A DNA stretch of 64,000 nucleotides from a virus (Duplodnaviria > Caudoviricetes). Numbering within the stretch: the first letter of the stretch is position 1; each line of letters begins with the position of its first letter. The stretch is from positions 92,002 through 156,001 of the IMG/VR virus record IMGVR_UViG_3300031555_002371. One strand, 5' to 3'. This document shows, one piece after another, positions 32,877 through 39,141 of the stretch. Below the pieces are notes generated by a model. That model saw only the letters and a program-made list of their open reading frames with translations, ran no database searches and was not told the DNA's origin. Made by a program: the position numbers and the translations under genes.

Positions 32877-33416
32877 ATGAAGAAACTTTTAGTAATCGTA
32901 GACGTTCAGAATGATTTTGTTGATGGTGCGCTCGGCACAAAGGAAGCACAGGCGATTATCCCGAAGGTCATTGACAAGATTGCCGAGTGGGATGGTGATA
33001 TTATCTGCACGTTAGATACCCACAAATATAATTATCTTGAAACAAGAGAGGGGAAGATGCTGCCCGTTCCTCATTGTATCGAGGGAACGGAAGGACACAA
33101 CATCAACATGGATGTATATGATGCACTGATTGATAAGTCATGCACAAAGTTCTCTACATTGAGTACGCTTTGCAAGTATACATTTGGTAGCACCGCACTT
33201 CCCGAAATCATCCGAGGCGCAGATGTTGACTATGTGGAGCTTGTAGGACTTTGCACCGATATTTGTGTAGTATCAAACGCTATGCTTTTAAAGGCGCATT
33301 ATCCCGAAATGGAAATTGCGGTTGATGCAAGTTGCTGTGCAGGTGTTACACCAGAAAGCCATAAGGCAGCACTTACTACAATGAAAATGTGTCAGATTAC
33401 GGTGATTGGAGAGTAA
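32877..33416 (+). CDS. pncA: nicotinamidase / isochorismatase-family cysteine hydrolase (PncA-like)
   Basis: VDVQNDF, DTH, HC, K, GLCTDICV catalytic pattern. Confidence 0.8.
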   Translation: MKKLLVIVDVQNDFVDGALGTKEAQAIIPKVIDKIAEWDGDIICTLDTHKYNYLETREGKMLPVPHCIEGTEGHNINMDVYDALIDKSCTKFSTLSTLCKYTFGSTALPEIIRGADVDYVELVGLCTDICVVSNAMLLKAHYPEMEIAVDASCCAGVTPESHKAALTTMKMCQITVIGE

Positions 33417-33420
33417 GAAG

Positions 33421-34284
33421 ATGATTACGCTTGATGGAAACAAAGTAGAAGTAGGTAAATTCCCGGATGGAACAATTCTTATGAAGCGTGATGGAAGCCC
33501 TCTCGATTTTATGAGATATGGATTTTTTACACCGCATTCTAAAATTGTATGGCAGTTTGAAAATAACGAAGAAATGATTGTGCTTATGTATCTGGTAAAG
33601 CATTTGAACAGTTGTGGCATTAAAGATATTATGCTTATCATGCCTTATATCCCGAATGCTCGTCAGGATAGAGTTAAGAGCGAAGAAGATGTATTTACTC
33701 TAAAATACTTTGCGGAGTTCATCAATAGCCTTGGATTTTCAAGTGTAACCGTGTTAGACCCTCATTCCTATGTGAGCGAGGCATTGATTGATAATATTAG
33801 AGTACAGACTCCCAAGTATTACATCAATAATACAATCGACATGATTAACGCTATTGAGCCGATTAACTCCGAAAATCGTTTGATGGCTTTCTATCCCGAC
33901 GAGGGAGCAATGAAAAGATATTCTGGATTGCTTGATATGCCATATGCATTCGGAATTAAACAGAGAGATTGGGCAACCGGTCAGATTCAAGGACTTGATG
34001 TATCCGGCATGACCGATATTATTTGTGATAGTAATGTGCTTATCATTGATGATATTTGTAGTAAAGGCGGAACATTCTATCATAGCGCAAAGAAGCTCAA
34101 GGAGCTTGGCGCAAAGAATATTTATCTATATGTTTCACATTGCGAAAACACCATTCTTCAGGGCGACTTGCTTACCAGTGGGTTGATTGAAAGAGTATTT
34201 ACAACCGATAGCATTTTTACAAAAACACATGAAAAGATTGAGGTAATGAATTATGATGCGTACAAATCCTATGCTTTTAATTGA
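33421..34284 (+). CDS. ribose-phosphate pyrophosphokinase-like (Prs/Adps-like)
   Basis: FPDG, PYIPNARQDR, DPHS, PDEGA, IIDDICSKGGTF. Confidence 0.9.
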   Translation: MITLDGNKVEVGKFPDGTILMKRDGSPLDFMRYGFFTPHSKIVWQFENNEEMIVLMYLVKHLNSCGIKDIMLIMPYIPNARQDRVKSEEDVFTLKYFAEFINSLGFSSVTVLDPHSYVSEALIDNIRVQTPKYYINNTIDMINAIEPINSENRLMAFYPDEGAMKRYSGLLDMPYAFGIKQRDWATGQIQGLDVSGMTDIICDSNVLIIDDICSKGGTFYHSAKKLKELGAKNIYLYVSHCENTILQGDLLTSGLIERVFTTDSIFTKTHEKIEVMNYDAYKSYAFN

Positions 34285-35731
34285 TTTCTACAAGGCGGTT
34301 CACGCCGAGATGCTGCCGAATGGGATTAACAAATCAGTCTCTTATGAGACAGCAAGAATGAGCAGAATCAAAAGATGGAATGAAATTGTAAGTTTCATTT
34401 GGCAACCCATTTGCAAGACTTATCTTGTGGATTACTTTAATGAAAACTTCTTTAATAGACCTTTTGATGAAGTGATTTCTGAGTACAAGAGAGTCATGGA
34501 TGCTGCACTCGGAGCGGATAATTATAAGATTGATAAGATTGCAAAGCTGCATGAGCTTGGCTGTCTTCCTATTGAAGTAAGAGCATTGCCGGAAGGCACA
34601 CGTGTTCCTCTCCACGTACCGATTATGGAGATTTCTAACACACATCCTGACTTTGCATGGCTTCCGCAGTCACTTGAAAGCCTCATCTCTGCGGAGAGTT
34701 GGCATCCTATGATTGCCGCAACCGTTGGTTATACTTACCGTCAGATTGTCAACAAGTATTATGATCTTACTTGTGATAACAATATTCCGAGAGCAAAAGC
34801 ATTGGGAGCATTTGACTTCCGAGGCGAGGAATGCACCGAGTCTGCTATCAAGGCTGGTGCAGGTTGGTGCTTGTCTTTCTTGAACACCGCAACCGTACCC
34901 GTAGTTCCTTATCTTGAAGCAATGTATAATTGTGATTGTGCCAAAGAGCCTGTCGCATTCGGTTCTCCCAGCACAGAACATTCTGTCATGTGTAGTAATT
35001 ATGCGGTTGACGGAGACGAAGAAACGTTTATTAGACGATTGCTGACTGAGATTTATCCTAATTCAAGTTTCTCTGCAGTTCTTGATTCTTATGATTATTG
35101 GAATGTTGTTGAAAATATTCTTCCCAAGTTGAAGAAGGAAATTCTCGCCCATAACGGATGTATGCTTGTACGTGGAGATTCCGGCGATTGCGTTGAAGTA
35201 GTAACCAAAACGGTATTTAAGTTGTGGGAGATTTTCGGAGGCACAATCAATAGCAAAGGATATAAGGTTCTTGACCCTCATATCAAGGCAATTTATGGCG
35301 ATAGCATTACCGTACAGCGTTGCGAGGAAATCTATAAAATTCTCATGGAAAATGGTTTTGCTTGCTCCAACGTTGCCCTTGGCGTAGGTTCATTCTCTAT
35401 GCAGTGTATTGAGGAAGATGGGAAACTGATGCCATTTACTCGTGATACTTTTGGCATTGCAATTAAGGCGACTTATTGTGAAATTAACGGTGTTCCCACT
35501 CCTATCTTTAAGAATCCCAAAGAGGGCGGATTTAAGAAATCTCAAAAGGGTTGTTGTGTCGTACACAGAAACCACGAAACAGGCGAGATTACTTTTGAGG
35601 ATGGCAAGACGTGGGAAGAATCGAAGAATGATAAGGATAATATGCTTGAAACCATTTTCCGTGATGGTAAGATGATTAAGGAGTACACCCTTGCTGAAGT
35701 AAGAAATAGATTGCATGGAGGGAACTTTTAA
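34253..35731 (+). CDS. NAMPT-fold nicotinate/nicotinamide phosphoribosyltransferase (Namat-like)
   Basis: DFYK..H, FDFRG, TEHSVM, DSYD, VRGDSGD, IYGDSIT, RDT, KKSQKG. Confidence 0.9.
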   Translation: MMRTNPMLLIDFYKAVHAEMLPNGINKSVSYETARMSRIKRWNEIVSFIWQPICKTYLVDYFNENFFNRPFDEVISEYKRVMDAALGADNYKIDKIAKLHELGCLPIEVRALPEGTRVPLHVPIMEISNTHPDFAWLPQSLESLISAESWHPMIAATVGYTYRQIVNKYYDLTCDNNIPRAKALGAFDFRGEECTESAIKAGAGWCLSFLNTATVPVVPYLEAMYNCDCAKEPVAFGSPSTEHSVMCSNYAVDGDEETFIRRLLTEIYPNSSFSAVLDSYDYWNVVENILPKLKKEILAHNGCMLVRGDSGDCVEVVTKTVFKLWEIFGGTINSKGYKVLDPHIKAIYGDSITVQRCEEIYKILMENGFACSNVALGVGSFSMQCIEEDGKLMPFTRDTFGIAIKATYCEINGVPTPIFKNPKEGGFKKSQKGCCVVHRNHETGEITFEDGKTWEESKNDKDNMLETIFRDGKMIKEYTLAEVRNRLHGGNF

Positions 35732-36915
35732 TGATTGATAGTTTTGTAAGAGAATATGAATTTTTGAGCAATTTCTATCCTGCCGAAGTTATATATCATG
35801 GTATTAAGTATAAGAACAACGAGGCAGCATTCCAGGCACAAAAAACCAAAGATATTAAAGATAGATTTCAGTTTTCTTCTTTGAATCCTTCCGAAGCTAA
35901 AAAGCTCGGCAGAAGAATTGAGCTTCGTAGTGATTGGGAACAAGTGAAAACCAATGTAATGTACGAAATCTGTCTTGCAAAGTTTACACAGAATGCAGAC
36001 TTGAAGCAGAAATTGCTCGATACTCATGACGAATACCTTGAAGAAGGTAATACATGGAATGATAAGGTATGGGGAACTGTCAATGGTGTTGGCGAAAATC
36101 GCCTCGGTAAGATTCTTATGAGAATCCGTGAGGAACTTTCAATGGATTTTGATTTGTATTCTGCAAAGAATGAATGTGTAGAATGGATTCGTAAGTTCTT
36201 CGATGAGAATGGCAAGGGATGTAATGCTATCATTGGTATCTCCGGAGGAAAAGATAGTTCTGTTGTGGCTGCGCTTTGTGTAGAAGCTCTTGGCAAGGAT
36301 AGAGTTATCGGAGTGCTTATGCCCAATGGAGAACAAGCGGATATTGATGATGCAGTTACATTGTGTGAATTTCTTGGAATTAGATTTACACAGGTTAATA
36401 TTAAAGATGCTTATAATGGTATTCTTAACAGAATGGGCAATCTGTTTGTTCCGAGAGAGGACAGCTCTTATGTAAATGATTTGATGGCTGTTTCCGAGCA
36501 AACAAAAGTCAATCTTCCGCCACGACTTCGTATGGCTACGCTTTATGCCGTATCGCAGAGCTTGAATGGTAGAGTTGCAAATACTTGTAACCTCTCGGAA
36601 GATTGGATTGGATATTCGACCAGATATGGCGACTCAGTTGGAGATTTTAGCCCCGTGTCGATGTTTACAAGTGATGAGGTTGTAGCCATTGGAGATGCTT
36701 GTGGCTTACCCTATAGCCTTACTCATAAAACTCCCGCCGATGGTCTTTGTGGAAAAACAGATGAGGATAATTTTGGATTTACTTATGCCGTTCTTAATAA
36801 GTATATTAGAACCGGTGTATGTAATGATGAAGCAACCAAACAAAAGATTGATGAGATGCATAGAAAGAACAAGTTTAAATTTGAATTGATGCCTCATTTT
36901 GAATATAGGAGATAA
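35731..36915 (+). CDS. nadE: NADAR domain fused to NH3-dependent NAD+ synthetase
   Basis: N-terminal FLSNFY...EAAFQAQK...D.VWG...G.N.LGKILM..R (NADAR); C-terminal GISGGKDS, RLRM, GYSTRYGD, PADGL..TDE (NadE). Confidence 0.9.
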   Translation: MIDSFVREYEFLSNFYPAEVIYHGIKYKNNEAAFQAQKTKDIKDRFQFSSLNPSEAKKLGRRIELRSDWEQVKTNVMYEICLAKFTQNADLKQKLLDTHDEYLEEGNTWNDKVWGTVNGVGENRLGKILMRIREELSMDFDLYSAKNECVEWIRKFFDENGKGCNAIIGISGGKDSSVVAALCVEALGKDRVIGVLMPNGEQADIDDAVTLCEFLGIRFTQVNIKDAYNGILNRMGNLFVPREDSSYVNDLMAVSEQTKVNLPPRLRMATLYAVSQSLNGRVANTCNLSEDWIGYSTRYGDSVGDFSPVSMFTSDEVVAIGDACGLPYSLTHKTPADGLCGKTDEDNFGFTYAVLNKYIRTGVCNDEATKQKIDEMHRKNKFKFELMPHFEYRR

Positions 36916-36917
36916 AA

Positions 36918-37709
36918 ATGAAAAAGATTGATGCTCTTGGCGAGCGAATGAAAAGATATGAATATGTAACTCGTACTTATTTGACAAGACGTGTTCCTGC
37001 TATCATTCGTCTTGACGGAAAAGCATTTCACACTTTTACGAGAGGGTTTCAGAAACCTTTTGACGAAATCCTTGTAAAGACGATGCAGCAAACAATGCGT
37101 TATCTCTGCGAGAACATTCAAGGATGTGTGCTTGGATATACACAATCTGATGAAATTACACTTGTACTTATAGATTACCAAAAGCTCGACAGTGATTCTT
37201 GGTTTGGATATAATATTCAGAAGTGCGCAAGTGTAGCCGCAAGTATGGCTACGATGGTATTTAATAAGTTCTTTGATTGCAATGTTTATGCATACAAAGC
37301 AGAAACAGAAATCATGGATGAGAAATATTGGGAAGCTCTTAATGTCGCAAGACAGCGTGGAGCTATGTTCGATGCAAGAGTATTCTCTATTCCGAAAGAA
37401 GAAGTTTGTAATTGCGTTTTGTGGCGACAGAATGATGCGACCAGAAATTCTATCGAGATGGTTGGTCAGGTATATTTTTCACAGAAGCAGTTGCACAAAA
37501 AGTCATGCAATCAAATCCAGGATATGTTGATGCTTGAAAAGGGAATCAATTGGAATAACACGCCTACACACCTTAAACGTGGTAGTTGTTGTGTAAGAAC
37601 ACTTGATAACCTTACCAAACGAAATAAGTGGATTATCGATACTGAAATTCCAATCTTTAAGGGAGAGGGAAGAAAGTATATTGATGACCGTGTATTTGTA
37701 GGTGAGTAA
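36918..37709 (+). CDS. tRNA(His) guanylyltransferase Thg1-like protein
   Basis: RLDGKAFH, QSDEI, FDAR, WRQ.DA.RNS. Confidence 0.9.
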   Translation: MKKIDALGERMKRYEYVTRTYLTRRVPAIIRLDGKAFHTFTRGFQKPFDEILVKTMQQTMRYLCENIQGCVLGYTQSDEITLVLIDYQKLDSDSWFGYNIQKCASVAASMATMVFNKFFDCNVYAYKAETEIMDEKYWEALNVARQRGAMFDARVFSIPKEEVCNCVLWRQNDATRNSIEMVGQVYFSQKQLHKKSCNQIQDMLMLEKGINWNNTPTHLKRGSCCVRTLDNLTKRNKWIIDTEIPIFKGEGRKYIDDRVFVGE

Positions 37710-37712
37710 AGC

Positions 37713-39092
37713 ATGACAGAAGCAGATGTTGTAATTATTGGTGGCGGTATTGGGGGTATGATGACCGCTCGCCGAATTAAAAAACTCAACCCTAATAAAA
37801 AGGTGTTGATTATCGAAAAGGGTAGGACCATAGAAAATCGGAAGTGTGCCGCACAAAATGGCAAGCCATGCGCCCATTGTGATGTTTGTGGTATAACTTC
37901 TGGATATGCCGGAGCGGGAGCTTTTTCCGATGGCAAATTCAATCTTGGAACTGCATATGGTGGTACTCTCGGAGATGAGCTTGGTGAAGATATTGCAATG
38001 AAATACATCATGGAAGTAGATAAAATTCTCTCCATTTATGCAAGTAATCAGCACGACAATTATCCGGAAATTTACAAGTCCAATAAAGAGTTGAAGTTGA
38101 AATGTTTACAGAATAACTTGCAATTACTCGATATGGATGTTCGTCACCTTGGAACAGATAGAAATTTGCGCCTTATGCAGAGTCTTATCAGACACCTAAA
38201 TGATATGGGTGTAATTATGTGGGAAAAAACCGAAGTAACCAATGTAAAAAAGATAAACTCTGAATATAGGGTTGAATGCAATAGTGGCGATTATATAACG
38301 GCATCTAATGTTGTATTTGCCGTAGGCAGAGGCGGTTCAAAATTCTTAACAACTTTTTGCAAAGCCAACAATATCCCTATGCACTCTAACGCCGTGGATA
38401 TTGGTGTGCGTGTTGAAATGAAGGATGCAATTTGGAATGAATTTAGTTCCAAAATTTACGAACCGAAGATTCTTTGCAAAACCAGAACATTTGAGGACAA
38501 AACAAGAATGTTTTGCTTCAATAAGGGTGGTATCGTTAGTGCAGAAAATAACAATGGTGTAATTACCGCCAATGGTCATTCTTATTCTAACGATGCAAAG
38601 AAAACGGGTAATTGCAATTTCGCTATTCTTACATCTATTAACTTTACAGAACCATTTAATCAACCTACGGTTTATGCAGAAAGTATCTCTTATCTTGCAA
38701 ATATCATTGGGGCAGGGAATGTAATTGTTCAAAGATTTGGAGACCTTATTAGAGGTAGGAGAACAAACGAACATAGACTTTCACAGAACACTGTTAAACC
38801 CACACTTAAAGCAACAGCCGGAGATTTAAGTTTGGTTCTTCCTCATAGAATACTGACCGATATTATCGAAACGATTTATGCTCTCGATAATGTAGCTCCC
38901 GGAACAGCCAATGATGATACATTGCTTTATGGTTGCGAGAGTAAGTATTATTCGGTAAAACCACAAATGGATAGTAGTTTTTCTATTATGCCCAATGTGT
39001 ATGTGGTTGGTGATGGCTCTGGTGTATGTAGAGGTTTATCGCAATCCGCAGCAATGGGATTATATGTGGCAGAAAAAATTTGCAATTTTTAA
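37713..39092 (+). CDS. FAD-dependent oxidoreductase
   Basis: GGGIGG Rossmann motif, GAGAFSDGK, GDGSG..RG. Confidence 0.85.
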   Translation: MTEADVVIIGGGIGGMMTARRIKKLNPNKKVLIIEKGRTIENRKCAAQNGKPCAHCDVCGITSGYAGAGAFSDGKFNLGTAYGGTLGDELGEDIAMKYIMEVDKILSIYASNQHDNYPEIYKSNKELKLKCLQNNLQLLDMDVRHLGTDRNLRLMQSLIRHLNDMGVIMWEKTEVTNVKKINSEYRVECNSGDYITASNVVFAVGRGGSKFLTTFCKANNIPMHSNAVDIGVRVEMKDAIWNEFSSKIYEPKILCKTRTFEDKTRMFCFNKGGIVSAENNNGVITANGHSYSNDAKKTGNCNFAILTSINFTEPFNQPTVYAESISYLANIIGAGNVIVQRFGDLIRGRRTNEHRLSQNTVKPTLKATAGDLSLVLPHRILTDIIETIYALDNVAPGTANDDTLLYGCESKYYSVKPQMDSSFSIMPNVYVVGDGSGVCRGLSQSAAMGLYVAEKICNF

Positions 39093-39112: not shown

Positions 39113-39141
39113 TTGACAAACCAAATTCGATGTGCTATAAT
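39113..39141 (+). promoter_or_regulatory. sigma-A promoter of the DGR cassette
   Basis: TTGACA-N17-TATAAT. Confidence 0.8.

Follow-up and report, generated by a model that had tools for sequence, protein, structure and literature searches.

Depletion of NAD+ is among the commonest means by which bacteria defend themselves against phages, and the chief countermeasure known from phages is NARP1. The locus analysed here (positions 32877-36915 of the window, a 64,000-nt stretch of a gut phage genome) raises the question of which route to NAD+ could be encoded by four coupled plus-strand genes for a PncA-type nicotinamidase, an Adps-like enzyme, a Namat-like transferase and a NADAR-NadE fusion protein. 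The initial annotation had proposed a deamidated variant of NARP1, in which nicotinamide would be deamidated, joined to ADPR-PP to give NaAD and then amidated by NadE.

Composition of the four-gene cassette

The source phage record (156,001 bp) is complete (CheckV 100%). The four ORFs are as tightly coupled as had been described, with neighbouring ends overlapping or 2 nt apart, and promoter and terminator scans yield site counts no higher than those in shuffled sequence. The cassette is embedded in a long co-directional gene block. The same four-gene arrangement is found again in more than 100 loci, so that it is not due to chance.

The first gene (32877..33416, plus strand) encodes a 179-aa PncA-type nicotinamidase of the isochorismatase family (PF00857, 1.7e-23), for which the top PDB match is the nicotinamidase PncA from P. 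horikoshii (1ILW/1IM5, 4e-16). The Asp-Lys-Cys triad and the metal site of nicotinamidase are present in this protein; in a set of 82 unique homologs encoded at related loci, at least 97% keep Asp9, Lys100 and the Cys of TDICV as well as Asp47, His49 and His66, which bind the metal.

The second gene (33406..34284, plus strand; phrog_619, 4e-70) encodes a putative Adps-like ADP-ribose pyrophosphokinase of the Prs fold. Its true start is probably the ATG at 33421; the alignment to Adps of phage SPbetaL1 begins at window residue 6. The protein is 38.8% identical to the characterised SPbetaL1 Adps (E 1e-52), whereas matches to solved Prs enzymes have E-values of 7e-15 or weaker. The motifs DDxxSxGGTF, FTLK, PHSxV, FPDxGAxKRYS and GxKxR..TGxI are common to the two proteins, and the PP-loop and hairpin motifs are of the Adps type. 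Sequence comparison makes this gene orthologous to Adps, the activity of which has been proven biochemically, and not to Prs; SPbetaL1 Adps itself was judged not to be a Prs in the Osterman preprint.

The fourth gene (35731..36915, plus strand, 394 aa) had been taken for NadE. The NadE domain is confirmed (PF02540, 2.6e-45), but a NADAR domain that precedes it (PF08719, 1.2e-28) had been overlooked. The NADAR domain spans approximately residues 8-136 (35752-36138, plus strand; TIGR02464, 91 bits, cut-off 73.7), and the NH3-dependent NAD synthetase domain approximately residues 147-384 (36169-36882, plus strand; TIGR00552 nadE, 147.7 bits, cut-off 63.65), with a conserved SGGxDS loop. The PDB matches of the fusion protein are the NadE structure 2e18 (1.5e-30) and YbiA, 2b3w (2.3e-16). 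The Francisella NMN synthetase 3fiu ranks second among the solved relatives of the NadE domain, so that, judged by sequence, NaMN is also a possible substrate. The N-terminal 140 aa form a NADAR domain, as known from E. coli YbiA and from AdfN, a phage NADAR protein given as an anti-DarT factor in PMC11825919, as cited in PMC13464706; unlike either, the NADAR domain of the window is fused in frame to NadE, an arrangement found, among approximately 160 loci, only here and in locus L085.

The initial annotation had also reported the lack of an NMN/NaMN adenylyltransferase, and this holds for the entire phage: a PF01467 search finds no match across the 156,001-bp record, whereas the same search matched 14 of 14 control genomes.

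The remodelled base pocket of the transferase

The third gene (34253..35731, plus strand) encodes a 492-aa Namat-like transferase of the NAMPT fold with a remodelled base pocket, a candidate nicotinate ADPR-transferase. Its closest solved relative is SPbetaL1 Namat (9w5x/9w5w, 6e-120; 43.5% identity); human NAMPT is matched with only 1e-48. In the Namat crystal structures, the nicotinamide pocket consists of F189, R192, D215, A242, R306, D13' and Y15', D215 forms a hydrogen bond with the amide, and the D215A substitution cuts NAD+ output 8.1-fold (PMC12774641). In human NAMPT, Asp219 has been reported to define substrate specificity (PMC7096376). The manual alignment behind the initial annotation had placed an alanine at this position, and the alignment of LSFLNTATVP in the window with LSFTGTDTIP in SPbetaL1 Namat agrees: D215 (human D219) corresponds to Ala213. 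A242 is likewise replaced, by Ser240, so that both carboxamide-facing residues differ. Where NARP1 has D215 and A242 for nicotinamide binding, the window has Ala213 and Ser240, and the change is class-wide.

Among the nicotinamide-pocket residues named from the structures, these two are the only ones changed. HMMER and MAFFT alignments to 9w5x/SPbetaL1 indicate that D13, Y15, R40, F189, R192, H245, R306, D308 and F392 are kept, which includes the stacking residues and the full Namat catalytic core (H245, R306, D308, F189, R192, D13' and Y15'). Further substitutions (SPbetaL1 numbering) are S239 to Gly, H187 to Gly and G213 to Asn; the changes specific to the clade comprise Q185A and A172Y in addition to S239G and H187G. 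A single-sequence AlphaFold2 model of the transferase was uninformative (pLDDT 35).

The SCH clamp of the window protein (GSFSMQC-IEEDGKLMPF-TRD) keeps R40 and F392, has Cys at position 7 and contains a 9-aa insertion before TRD, with a conserved Phe immediately preceding TRD. Throughout the large clade to which the window belongs, the insertion is 9 aa or longer and the second aromatic residue (Y396) is lost; given these features, adenine recognition in this clade could differ from that of Namat. A separate group (loci L112, L113 and L115) and phage Phass-1 combine D215A and A242S with the fully canonical clamp GS[YF]TYQ[YF]xTRD (GAYTYQYVTRD in Phass-1); a PncA gene is a neighbour of the transferase in L112, L115 and Phass-1 and not in L113.

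The identity of the ribosyl donor bears on the main alternative to the deamidated NARP1 reading, namely, a Preiss-Handler-like salvage in which the Prs-like enzyme would produce PRPP, the NAMPT-fold transferase would form NaMN, the host NadD would adenylate it and the phage NadE would complete the synthesis, or else NMN would be made by the NadE domain and adenylated by an NMN adenylyltransferase of the host. The clamp insertion in the window's clade is compatible with such a scheme, as are the acceptance of PRPP by canonical Namat in vitro, the nearly equal similarity of the NadE domain to the Francisella enzyme and to archaeal NadE, and the usual presence of NadD in hosts. We nevertheless regard it as unlikely, considering the much greater similarity of the second gene product to Adps than to true Prs, together with the preprint's denial of Prs identity for SPbetaL1 Adps, the retention of the adenine clamp residues F392 and R40, and the existence of wholly canonical-clamp sub-groups that share the pocket change and, mostly, the same neighbours. 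Moreover, the PRPP-using Bacillus phage G possesses NadD and lacks Adps, whereas the complete window phage has no adenylyltransferase. Because the Adps gene is kept adjacent and is orthologous to SPbetaL1 Adps, F392 and R40 are kept and a canonical-clamp sub-group exists, ADPR-PP rather than PRPP appears to be the donor.

Covariation and gene linkage across related loci

In 158 related loci, the metagenomic ones having been sampled with a variant-specific pattern, the residues at positions 215/242 are A/S (115 loci), S/S (20) or D/A (23), and mixed pairs do not occur. Loci with A/S or S/S are here called variant and those with D/A canonical. The same split is repeated in the best 150 50%-identity representatives from a library of 1.84 billion proteins, approximately 58 of which are variant; D215 and A242 are invariant in 23 of 23 canonical loci and in approximately 88 canonical representatives. 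The gene neighborhoods separate along the same line. In 85 variant loci the available flank is 4 kb or more on either side; of these, 81 have PncA, 84 have Adps and 77 have NadE. The respective counts for the 15 canonical loci flanked to the same extent are 0, 15 and 0, and PncA and NadE are absent near all 23 canonical loci examined. An apparent cluster of NadE genes near canonical loci was rejected, as it consisted of NADAR genes linked to NadE via fusion proteins; NADAR genes are present near canonical NARP1 in 5 of the 23 loci.

Adps adjoins the transferase in 99% of the variant loci. The same set of genes is retained in changing order (e.g., NadE-PncA-Adps-Namat in L140, Namat-PncA-NadE in L147 and Adps-Namat-NadE-PncA in L035-L040). 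One database protein, P0044, joins a variant transferase to NAD_synthase in a single chain; fusions of this type were not detected in the viral scan and are in frame in none of 30 metagenome relatives, so that the fusion may be either uncommon or the artefact of a frameshift. A single origin of the pocket change would fit the tree, and the co-occurrence with PncA and NadE is thus best viewed as long-term retention after one event, not as many independent events; the Fisher values make the loci look more independent than they are.

These patterns can be set against an ordinary, nicotinamide-using NARP1, in which PncA and NadE would be independent auxiliaries that boost host nicotinate salvage or clear nicotinamide to some other end, and the altered pocket residues would be neutral or would tune affinity. 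Namat with the D215A substitution retains residual activity (the drop is 8-fold, not to zero), a serine at 242 could still form a hydrogen bond with the amide, and NadE or PncA is not nearby in some variant loci. This explanation is improbable, however, in view of the invariance of D215 and A242 in the canonical class and the replacement of both residues wherever PncA or NadE is nearby, with no mixed states. In addition, a Namat that used nicotinamide would have its substrate destroyed by the PncA of its own operon, and the fusion of transferase and NadE in P0044 also argues against mere auxiliaries.

Still less probable, in our assessment, is that the true substrate of the transferase and of the isochorismatase-family enzyme is some other pyridine or amide compound, or that the pathway ends in NaAD or a related dinucleotide, which would serve as a decoy, signal or inhibitor instead of as a precursor of NAD+. 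Isochorismatase-family hydrolases are diverse in their substrates, residue 213 is variable within the variant class (N, K, L, S, P, G), and NadE is lacking near approximately 9% of the well-flanked variant loci (e.g., Ruminococcus albus prophages), where the last step of a deamidated NARP1 would have to be performed by the NadE of the host. Against this stand the conservation of the nicotinamidase-specific triad and metal site among the homologs and the linkage of NadE, the known substrates of which are NaAD and NaMN, in 91% of the well-flanked loci, with one case of fusion.

A candidate route through NaAD

Taken together, the 215/242 covariation, the linkage to PncA and NadE, the orthology of the second gene to Adps and the lack of an adenylyltransferase support the deamidated reading of the initial annotation: the module is probably a nicotinate-type derivative of NARP1 that would convert ADP-ribose and nicotinic acid to NaAD and then to NAD+. 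From the observed gene identities, residue changes, covariation and linkage, we infer the substrates of all four enzymes, that of the third step above all. The steps would begin once a host NADase defence has split NAD+ to ADP-ribose and nicotinamide. The PncA-like enzyme would convert nicotinamide to nicotinate, and the Adps homolog would use ATP to convert ADP-ribose to ADPR-PP. The Namat-like enzyme, with Ala/Ser in place of Asp/Ala, would join nicotinate and ADPR-PP directly into NaAD, so that no adenylyltransferase would be needed, and the NadE domain would then use ATP and ammonia to amidate NaAD, which yields NAD+. A speculative further role for NaAD, put forward in the initial annotation, would be that of an NADase-resistant pool. 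The fused NADAR domain may be an accessory N-glycosidase that probably strips ADP-ribose off modified DNA or other conjugates. The extra ATP and two extra enzymes are a cost to the phage that counts against this route.

NARP1 (Adps and Namat) is known from phages SPbetaL1, Bas63 and ICP1 and from Paenibacillus foliorum (bioRxiv 10.1101/2024.02.11.579819; PMC12774641; PMC13586617). The window module shares with it the adjacent pair of Adps-like and Namat-like genes, which here overlap (33406-34284 and 34253-35731), the level of identity to both SPbetaL1 proteins, and the conserved catalytic core, R40/F392 and Adps motifs. Unlike NARP1, it has Ala/Ser at 215/242 and an insertion in the SCH clamp, its class has nicotinamidase and NAD synthetase as obligatory or near-obligatory neighbours, and its predicted product is NaAD instead of NAD+.

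Preiss-Handler salvage (PncA, PncB, NadD, NadE) likewise starts with a nicotinamidase, ends with an NH3-dependent NAD synthetase and proceeds through deamidated intermediates. However, neither a PncB-type nicotinate phosphoribosyltransferase nor NadD is found in the phage; an Adps homolog and a transferase of the NAMPT/Namat type are present instead, so that the adenylate would come ready-made from ADP-ribose. Bacillus phage G encodes a Preiss-Handler set (gp275, gp277, gp281 and gp283, by annotation only). It was considered as a cultured carrier of the variant module and rejected, given that gp277 fails the Namat profile and that the phage has a PncB-type NAPRT with NadD and no Adps.

NARP2 (Nampt and Nmnat, Vibrio phage KVP40) and NARP3 (PnuC and NadR, Bas30) (PMC13464706) are also phage-encoded systems of NAD+ restoration against NADase defences, and NARP2 too includes a NAMPT-fold enzyme. 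In contrast to both, Nmnat, NadR and PnuC are absent from the complete window phage, the donor-activating enzyme is Adps-like and the base pocket is not of the nicotinamide type; compared with the PRPP-preferring Nampt of NARP2, the transferase is much nearer to Namat than to NAMPT and has the Namat-clamp residue F392.

No description of the reaction of nicotinate and ADPR-PP to NaAD was found in the literature, and the four-gene module is not described in the 2022 NAD-ADPr virus survey, the NARP3 paper or the preprints on NARP1, aRES and RyR, nor was a description found by keyword. Megablast of the cassette found no match in 50,697 phage records, and the only variant-clade record above 60% identity in tblastn is MT835544.1. 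With slightly less assurance than for the module as a whole, we favour the proposal that the Namat-like enzyme catalyses the reaction of nicotinate and ADPR-PP to NaAD and PPi, that the D215A/S and A242S two-residue switch sets its specificity, and that it would define a fourth, deamidated pathway of phage NAD+ reconstitution, which occurs widely among the phages and prophages of Clostridia from gut and rumen and is missing from cultured model phages. Possible reasons to deamidate include the trapping of freely diffusing nicotinamide as an anion, a forward pull on the reversible transferase step, or a nicotinate-type pyridine pool in the host. Cultured carriers, namely, Ruminococcus albus KH2T6 and AR67, Konateibacter massiliensis and Pseudoruminococcus massiliensis, make experiments feasible.

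The evidence points to an undescribed deamidated route, which would start from ADP-ribose and nicotinic acid and pass through deamido-NAD, as a variant of the known NARP1 counter-defence. If this is correct, a large and diverse branch of Namat (approximately 58 of the 150 nearest clusters at 50% identity), spanning many phages and prophages of gut and rumen Clostridia, runs NARP1 via nicotinate. The transferase would then represent a new enzyme reaction and a new natural source of NaAD, and the residues at 215/242, D/A as opposed to A or S followed by S, would provide a simple annotation rule to separate the two types of pathway.

Gene content of the four-gene cassette

The window (bases 92002-156001 of an IMG/VR virus record of 156,001 bp, complete according to CheckV) contains a cassette of four plus-strand ORFs (window positions 32877-36915) with overlapping or nearly abutting ends, as the initial annotation had described. 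Gene 1 (179 aa) belongs to the isochorismatase family (PF00857, 1.7e-23), the closest solved structure being the nicotinamidase from Pyrococcus horikoshii (4e-16). The catalytic Asp9, Lys100 and the Cys of TDICV, together with the nicotinamidase-specific metal ligands Asp47, His49 and His66, are each retained in at least 97% of the 82 unique homologs from related loci. Gene 2 (292 aa, likely starting from the ATG at 33421) encodes a Prs-like protein (phrog_619, 4e-70) that is 38.8% identical to SPbetaL1 Adps (1e-52), compared with hits to true Prs structures at 7e-15 or weaker, and shares with Adps the motifs in the PP-loop and catalytic-hairpin regions. ADP-ribose pyrophosphorylation has been demonstrated for SPbetaL1 Adps, which its authors do not consider a Prs (10.1101/2024.02.11.579819). 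Gene 3 (492 aa) is Namat-like, matching the crystallized SPbetaL1 Namat (9w5x/9w5w) at 6e-120 and human NAMPT at 1e-48. The 394-aa product of gene 4 is a fusion of a NADAR domain (residues 8-136, 1.2e-28), overlooked in the initial annotation, to an NH3-dependent NAD synthetase (residues 147-384, 2.6e-45; 147.7 bits on TIGR00552, with a cut-off of 63.65), correctly recognized there as NadE. A PF01467 search that matched 14 of 14 control genomes found no NMN/NaMN adenylyltransferase in the whole phage, in line with the initial claim, and no Nudix gene was found in this phage.

Base pocket of the transferase and spread of the variant class

In Namat structures, the nicotinamide pocket is formed by Phe189, Arg192, Asp215, Ala242, Arg306, Asp13' and Tyr15'; Asp215 is hydrogen-bonded to the amide, and its replacement by Ala reduces NAD+ formation 8.1-fold (PMC12774641). 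The corresponding Asp219 of human NAMPT has been reported to define substrate specificity (PMC7096376). Profile alignment equates Asp215 with Ala213 of the window transferase, so the manual alignment, by which the amide-selecting Asp was read as Ala, was correct. Ala242 is replaced by Ser240, a second change facing the same substituent. The window transferase still has the stacking residues, the two arginines, the catalytic His245 and Asp308.

By profile alignment, the Namat-family gene of every locus was assigned to a class, in a sample of 63 viral, 65 genome and 30 metagenome loci and two GenBank phage loci (MT835544.1 and Phass-1). Of 158 loci, 115 have A/S and 20 have S/S at positions 215/242 (variant), and 23 have D/A (canonical), the metagenome loci having been chosen using the variant-type pattern; none of the 158 shows a mixed state. 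Other positions diagnostic of the variant class are S239G, H187G/S, Q185A and A172Y/F. Where flanks of 4 kb or more are available on both sides, the 85 variant loci include PncA in 81, Adps in 84, NadE in 77 and PncA with NadE in 74; all 15 canonical loci possess Adps, and none has PncA, NadE or the pair. Gene order in the variant class is shuffled while the set is kept (NadE-PncA-Adps-Namat in L140, Namat-PncA-NadE in L147, Adps-Namat-NadE-PncA in L035-L040). The window module is recurrent across loci and not an isolated oddity.

When 1.84 billion 50%-identity representatives were searched, 1207 scored below 1e-30 as Namat-family members; the best 150 of these include about 88 of the canonical type (G-D / S-A-H / H) and about 58 of the variant type (x-A or S / G-S-H / non-His). 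In P0044, one of the variant representatives, the transferase and a NAD synthase domain are fused. Many representatives are 550-1100 aa long (P0003, P0022, P0029, P0035, P0067 and others) and align with the query in two or three segments, with breaks near residue 318; their large insertions (perhaps inteins or inserted domains) have no Pfam match at 1e-4. In the 308-aa P0076, a single gene call links 37 N-terminal residues of a PncA-like protein to 270 residues from the C terminus of a variant transferase, probably through a deletion or an assembly artefact. Namat-family members are present in 2043 of 50,697 phage records, where only one uncultured faecal phage exceeds 60% identity to the window transferase. 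Carriers in genome collections are mainly MAGs of Lachnospiraceae, Oscillospiraceae and Ruminococcus, and cultured ones include R. albus KH2T6 and AR67, Konateibacter massiliensis and Pseudoruminococcus massiliensis. In a quick maximum-likelihood tree, all canonical sequences lie together on a single side of a branch supported at 99%. This tree is consistent with the pocket switch having arisen once, so that the association of the genes represents one event followed by long retention rather than many independent events; the retention spans lineages down to about 40% identity.

Genomic neighborhood and comparison with known systems

Among about 160 loci, the in-frame NADAR-NadE fusion is found only in the window (35731-36915) and in one other locus (L085:9487-10791). 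Free-standing NADAR genes occur near both variant (L041, L044, L083, L113, L151) and canonical (L056, L060, L117-L119) NARP1 loci, which suggests a general NADAR-NARP1 link, perhaps in ADP-ribose supply or in countering DarT. An NrtR-like regulator combining Nudix and NrtR winged helix domains, the type that represses NAD regulons in response to ADP-ribose, adjoins 34 variant and 4 canonical modules (e.g., L087:10320-11231 and L117:4002-4706), and ADP-ribose may induce the cassette in some of its carriers. Macro-domain genes recur beside 15 variant and 2 canonical modules (e.g., L024:7443-7979 and L052:6908-7378). Directly downstream of the cassette, the 36918-39092 region encodes a homolog of Thg1-like tRNA-His guanylyltransferase (PF04446, 2.3e-29) and a 459-aa protein resembling FAD-dependent oxidoreductases; at other loci, neither is a recurrent neighbor of the module. 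Just past the co-directional block containing the module lies a sigma-70 promoter that matches the consensus perfectly (12/12) and has an extended -10 TG (39113-39141).

The module resembles NARP1 in its first step but lacks the Asp and Ala that bind nicotinamide, a defining feature of NARP1. The module resembles the Preiss-Handler pathway in the first and last steps but lacks PncB and NadD, and differs from NARP2 and NARP3 in the absence of Nmnat and PnuC/NadR, respectively. No description of the module was found in the papers on NARP1, Namat, Adps, aRES, RyR and NARP3, in the 2022 survey of viral NAD-ADPr systems, or by keyword literature search. In Bacillus phage G (NC_023719.1, 199500-209500), a single block provides the full classical set for nicotinate salvage: Nudix, isochorismatase gp275, PncB-type NAPRT gp277, KptA-like gp280, NadD-like gp281 and NadE gp283, without Adps. 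The human-gut, code-15 (TAG-recoded) phage Phass-1 (OQ749652.1, 95000-103500) has a block flanked by tRNA genes, annotated without interpretation of the gene set as nicotinamidase, ribose-phosphate pyrophosphokinase, nicotinamide phosphoribosyltransferase and two hypothetical proteins; these are a 140-aa gene product and a NadE (profile match, 5e-78). The Phass-1 transferase carries the D215A/A242S switch beside a canonical adenine clamp.

Donor substrate and the predicted reaction

Five lines of comparative evidence favor ADPR-PP as the putative donor. The Prs-like partner, adjacent in 99% of the variant loci, is orthologous to Adps; Arg40 and Phe392, both of which stack on adenine in Namat, are retained; a basal group (L112, L113, L115) and Phass-1 combine D215A/A242S with the fully canonical clamp motif, with PncA near the module in all of these except L113, where none was found; the PF01467 search detected no adenylyltransferase in the window's phage; and Bacillus phage G, with its PncB-type NAPRT, has NadD and no Adps. 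The donor could instead be PRPP, the outcome that the initial annotation had named as incompatible with its reading; two observations weigh against ADPR-PP, namely that the large clade including the window transferase has an insertion of at least 9 aa in the SCH clamp and is missing the second aromatic residue, and that the NadE domain has Francisella NMN synthetase as its second-closest solved relative. On balance, sequence comparison supports the originally proposed deamidated variant of NARP1, with ADPR-PP as the predicted donor.

The mechanism that we consider fairly probable for the window module is that PncA would produce nicotinate, Adps would convert ADP-ribose to ADPR-PP, the transferase would join the two into NaAD, and NadE would yield NAD+. 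Such a module would imply a new enzyme reaction. The longer route might repay its cost to a phage by trapping diffusible nicotinamide as an anion, pulling a reversible step forward, or suiting a host pool based on nicotinate.
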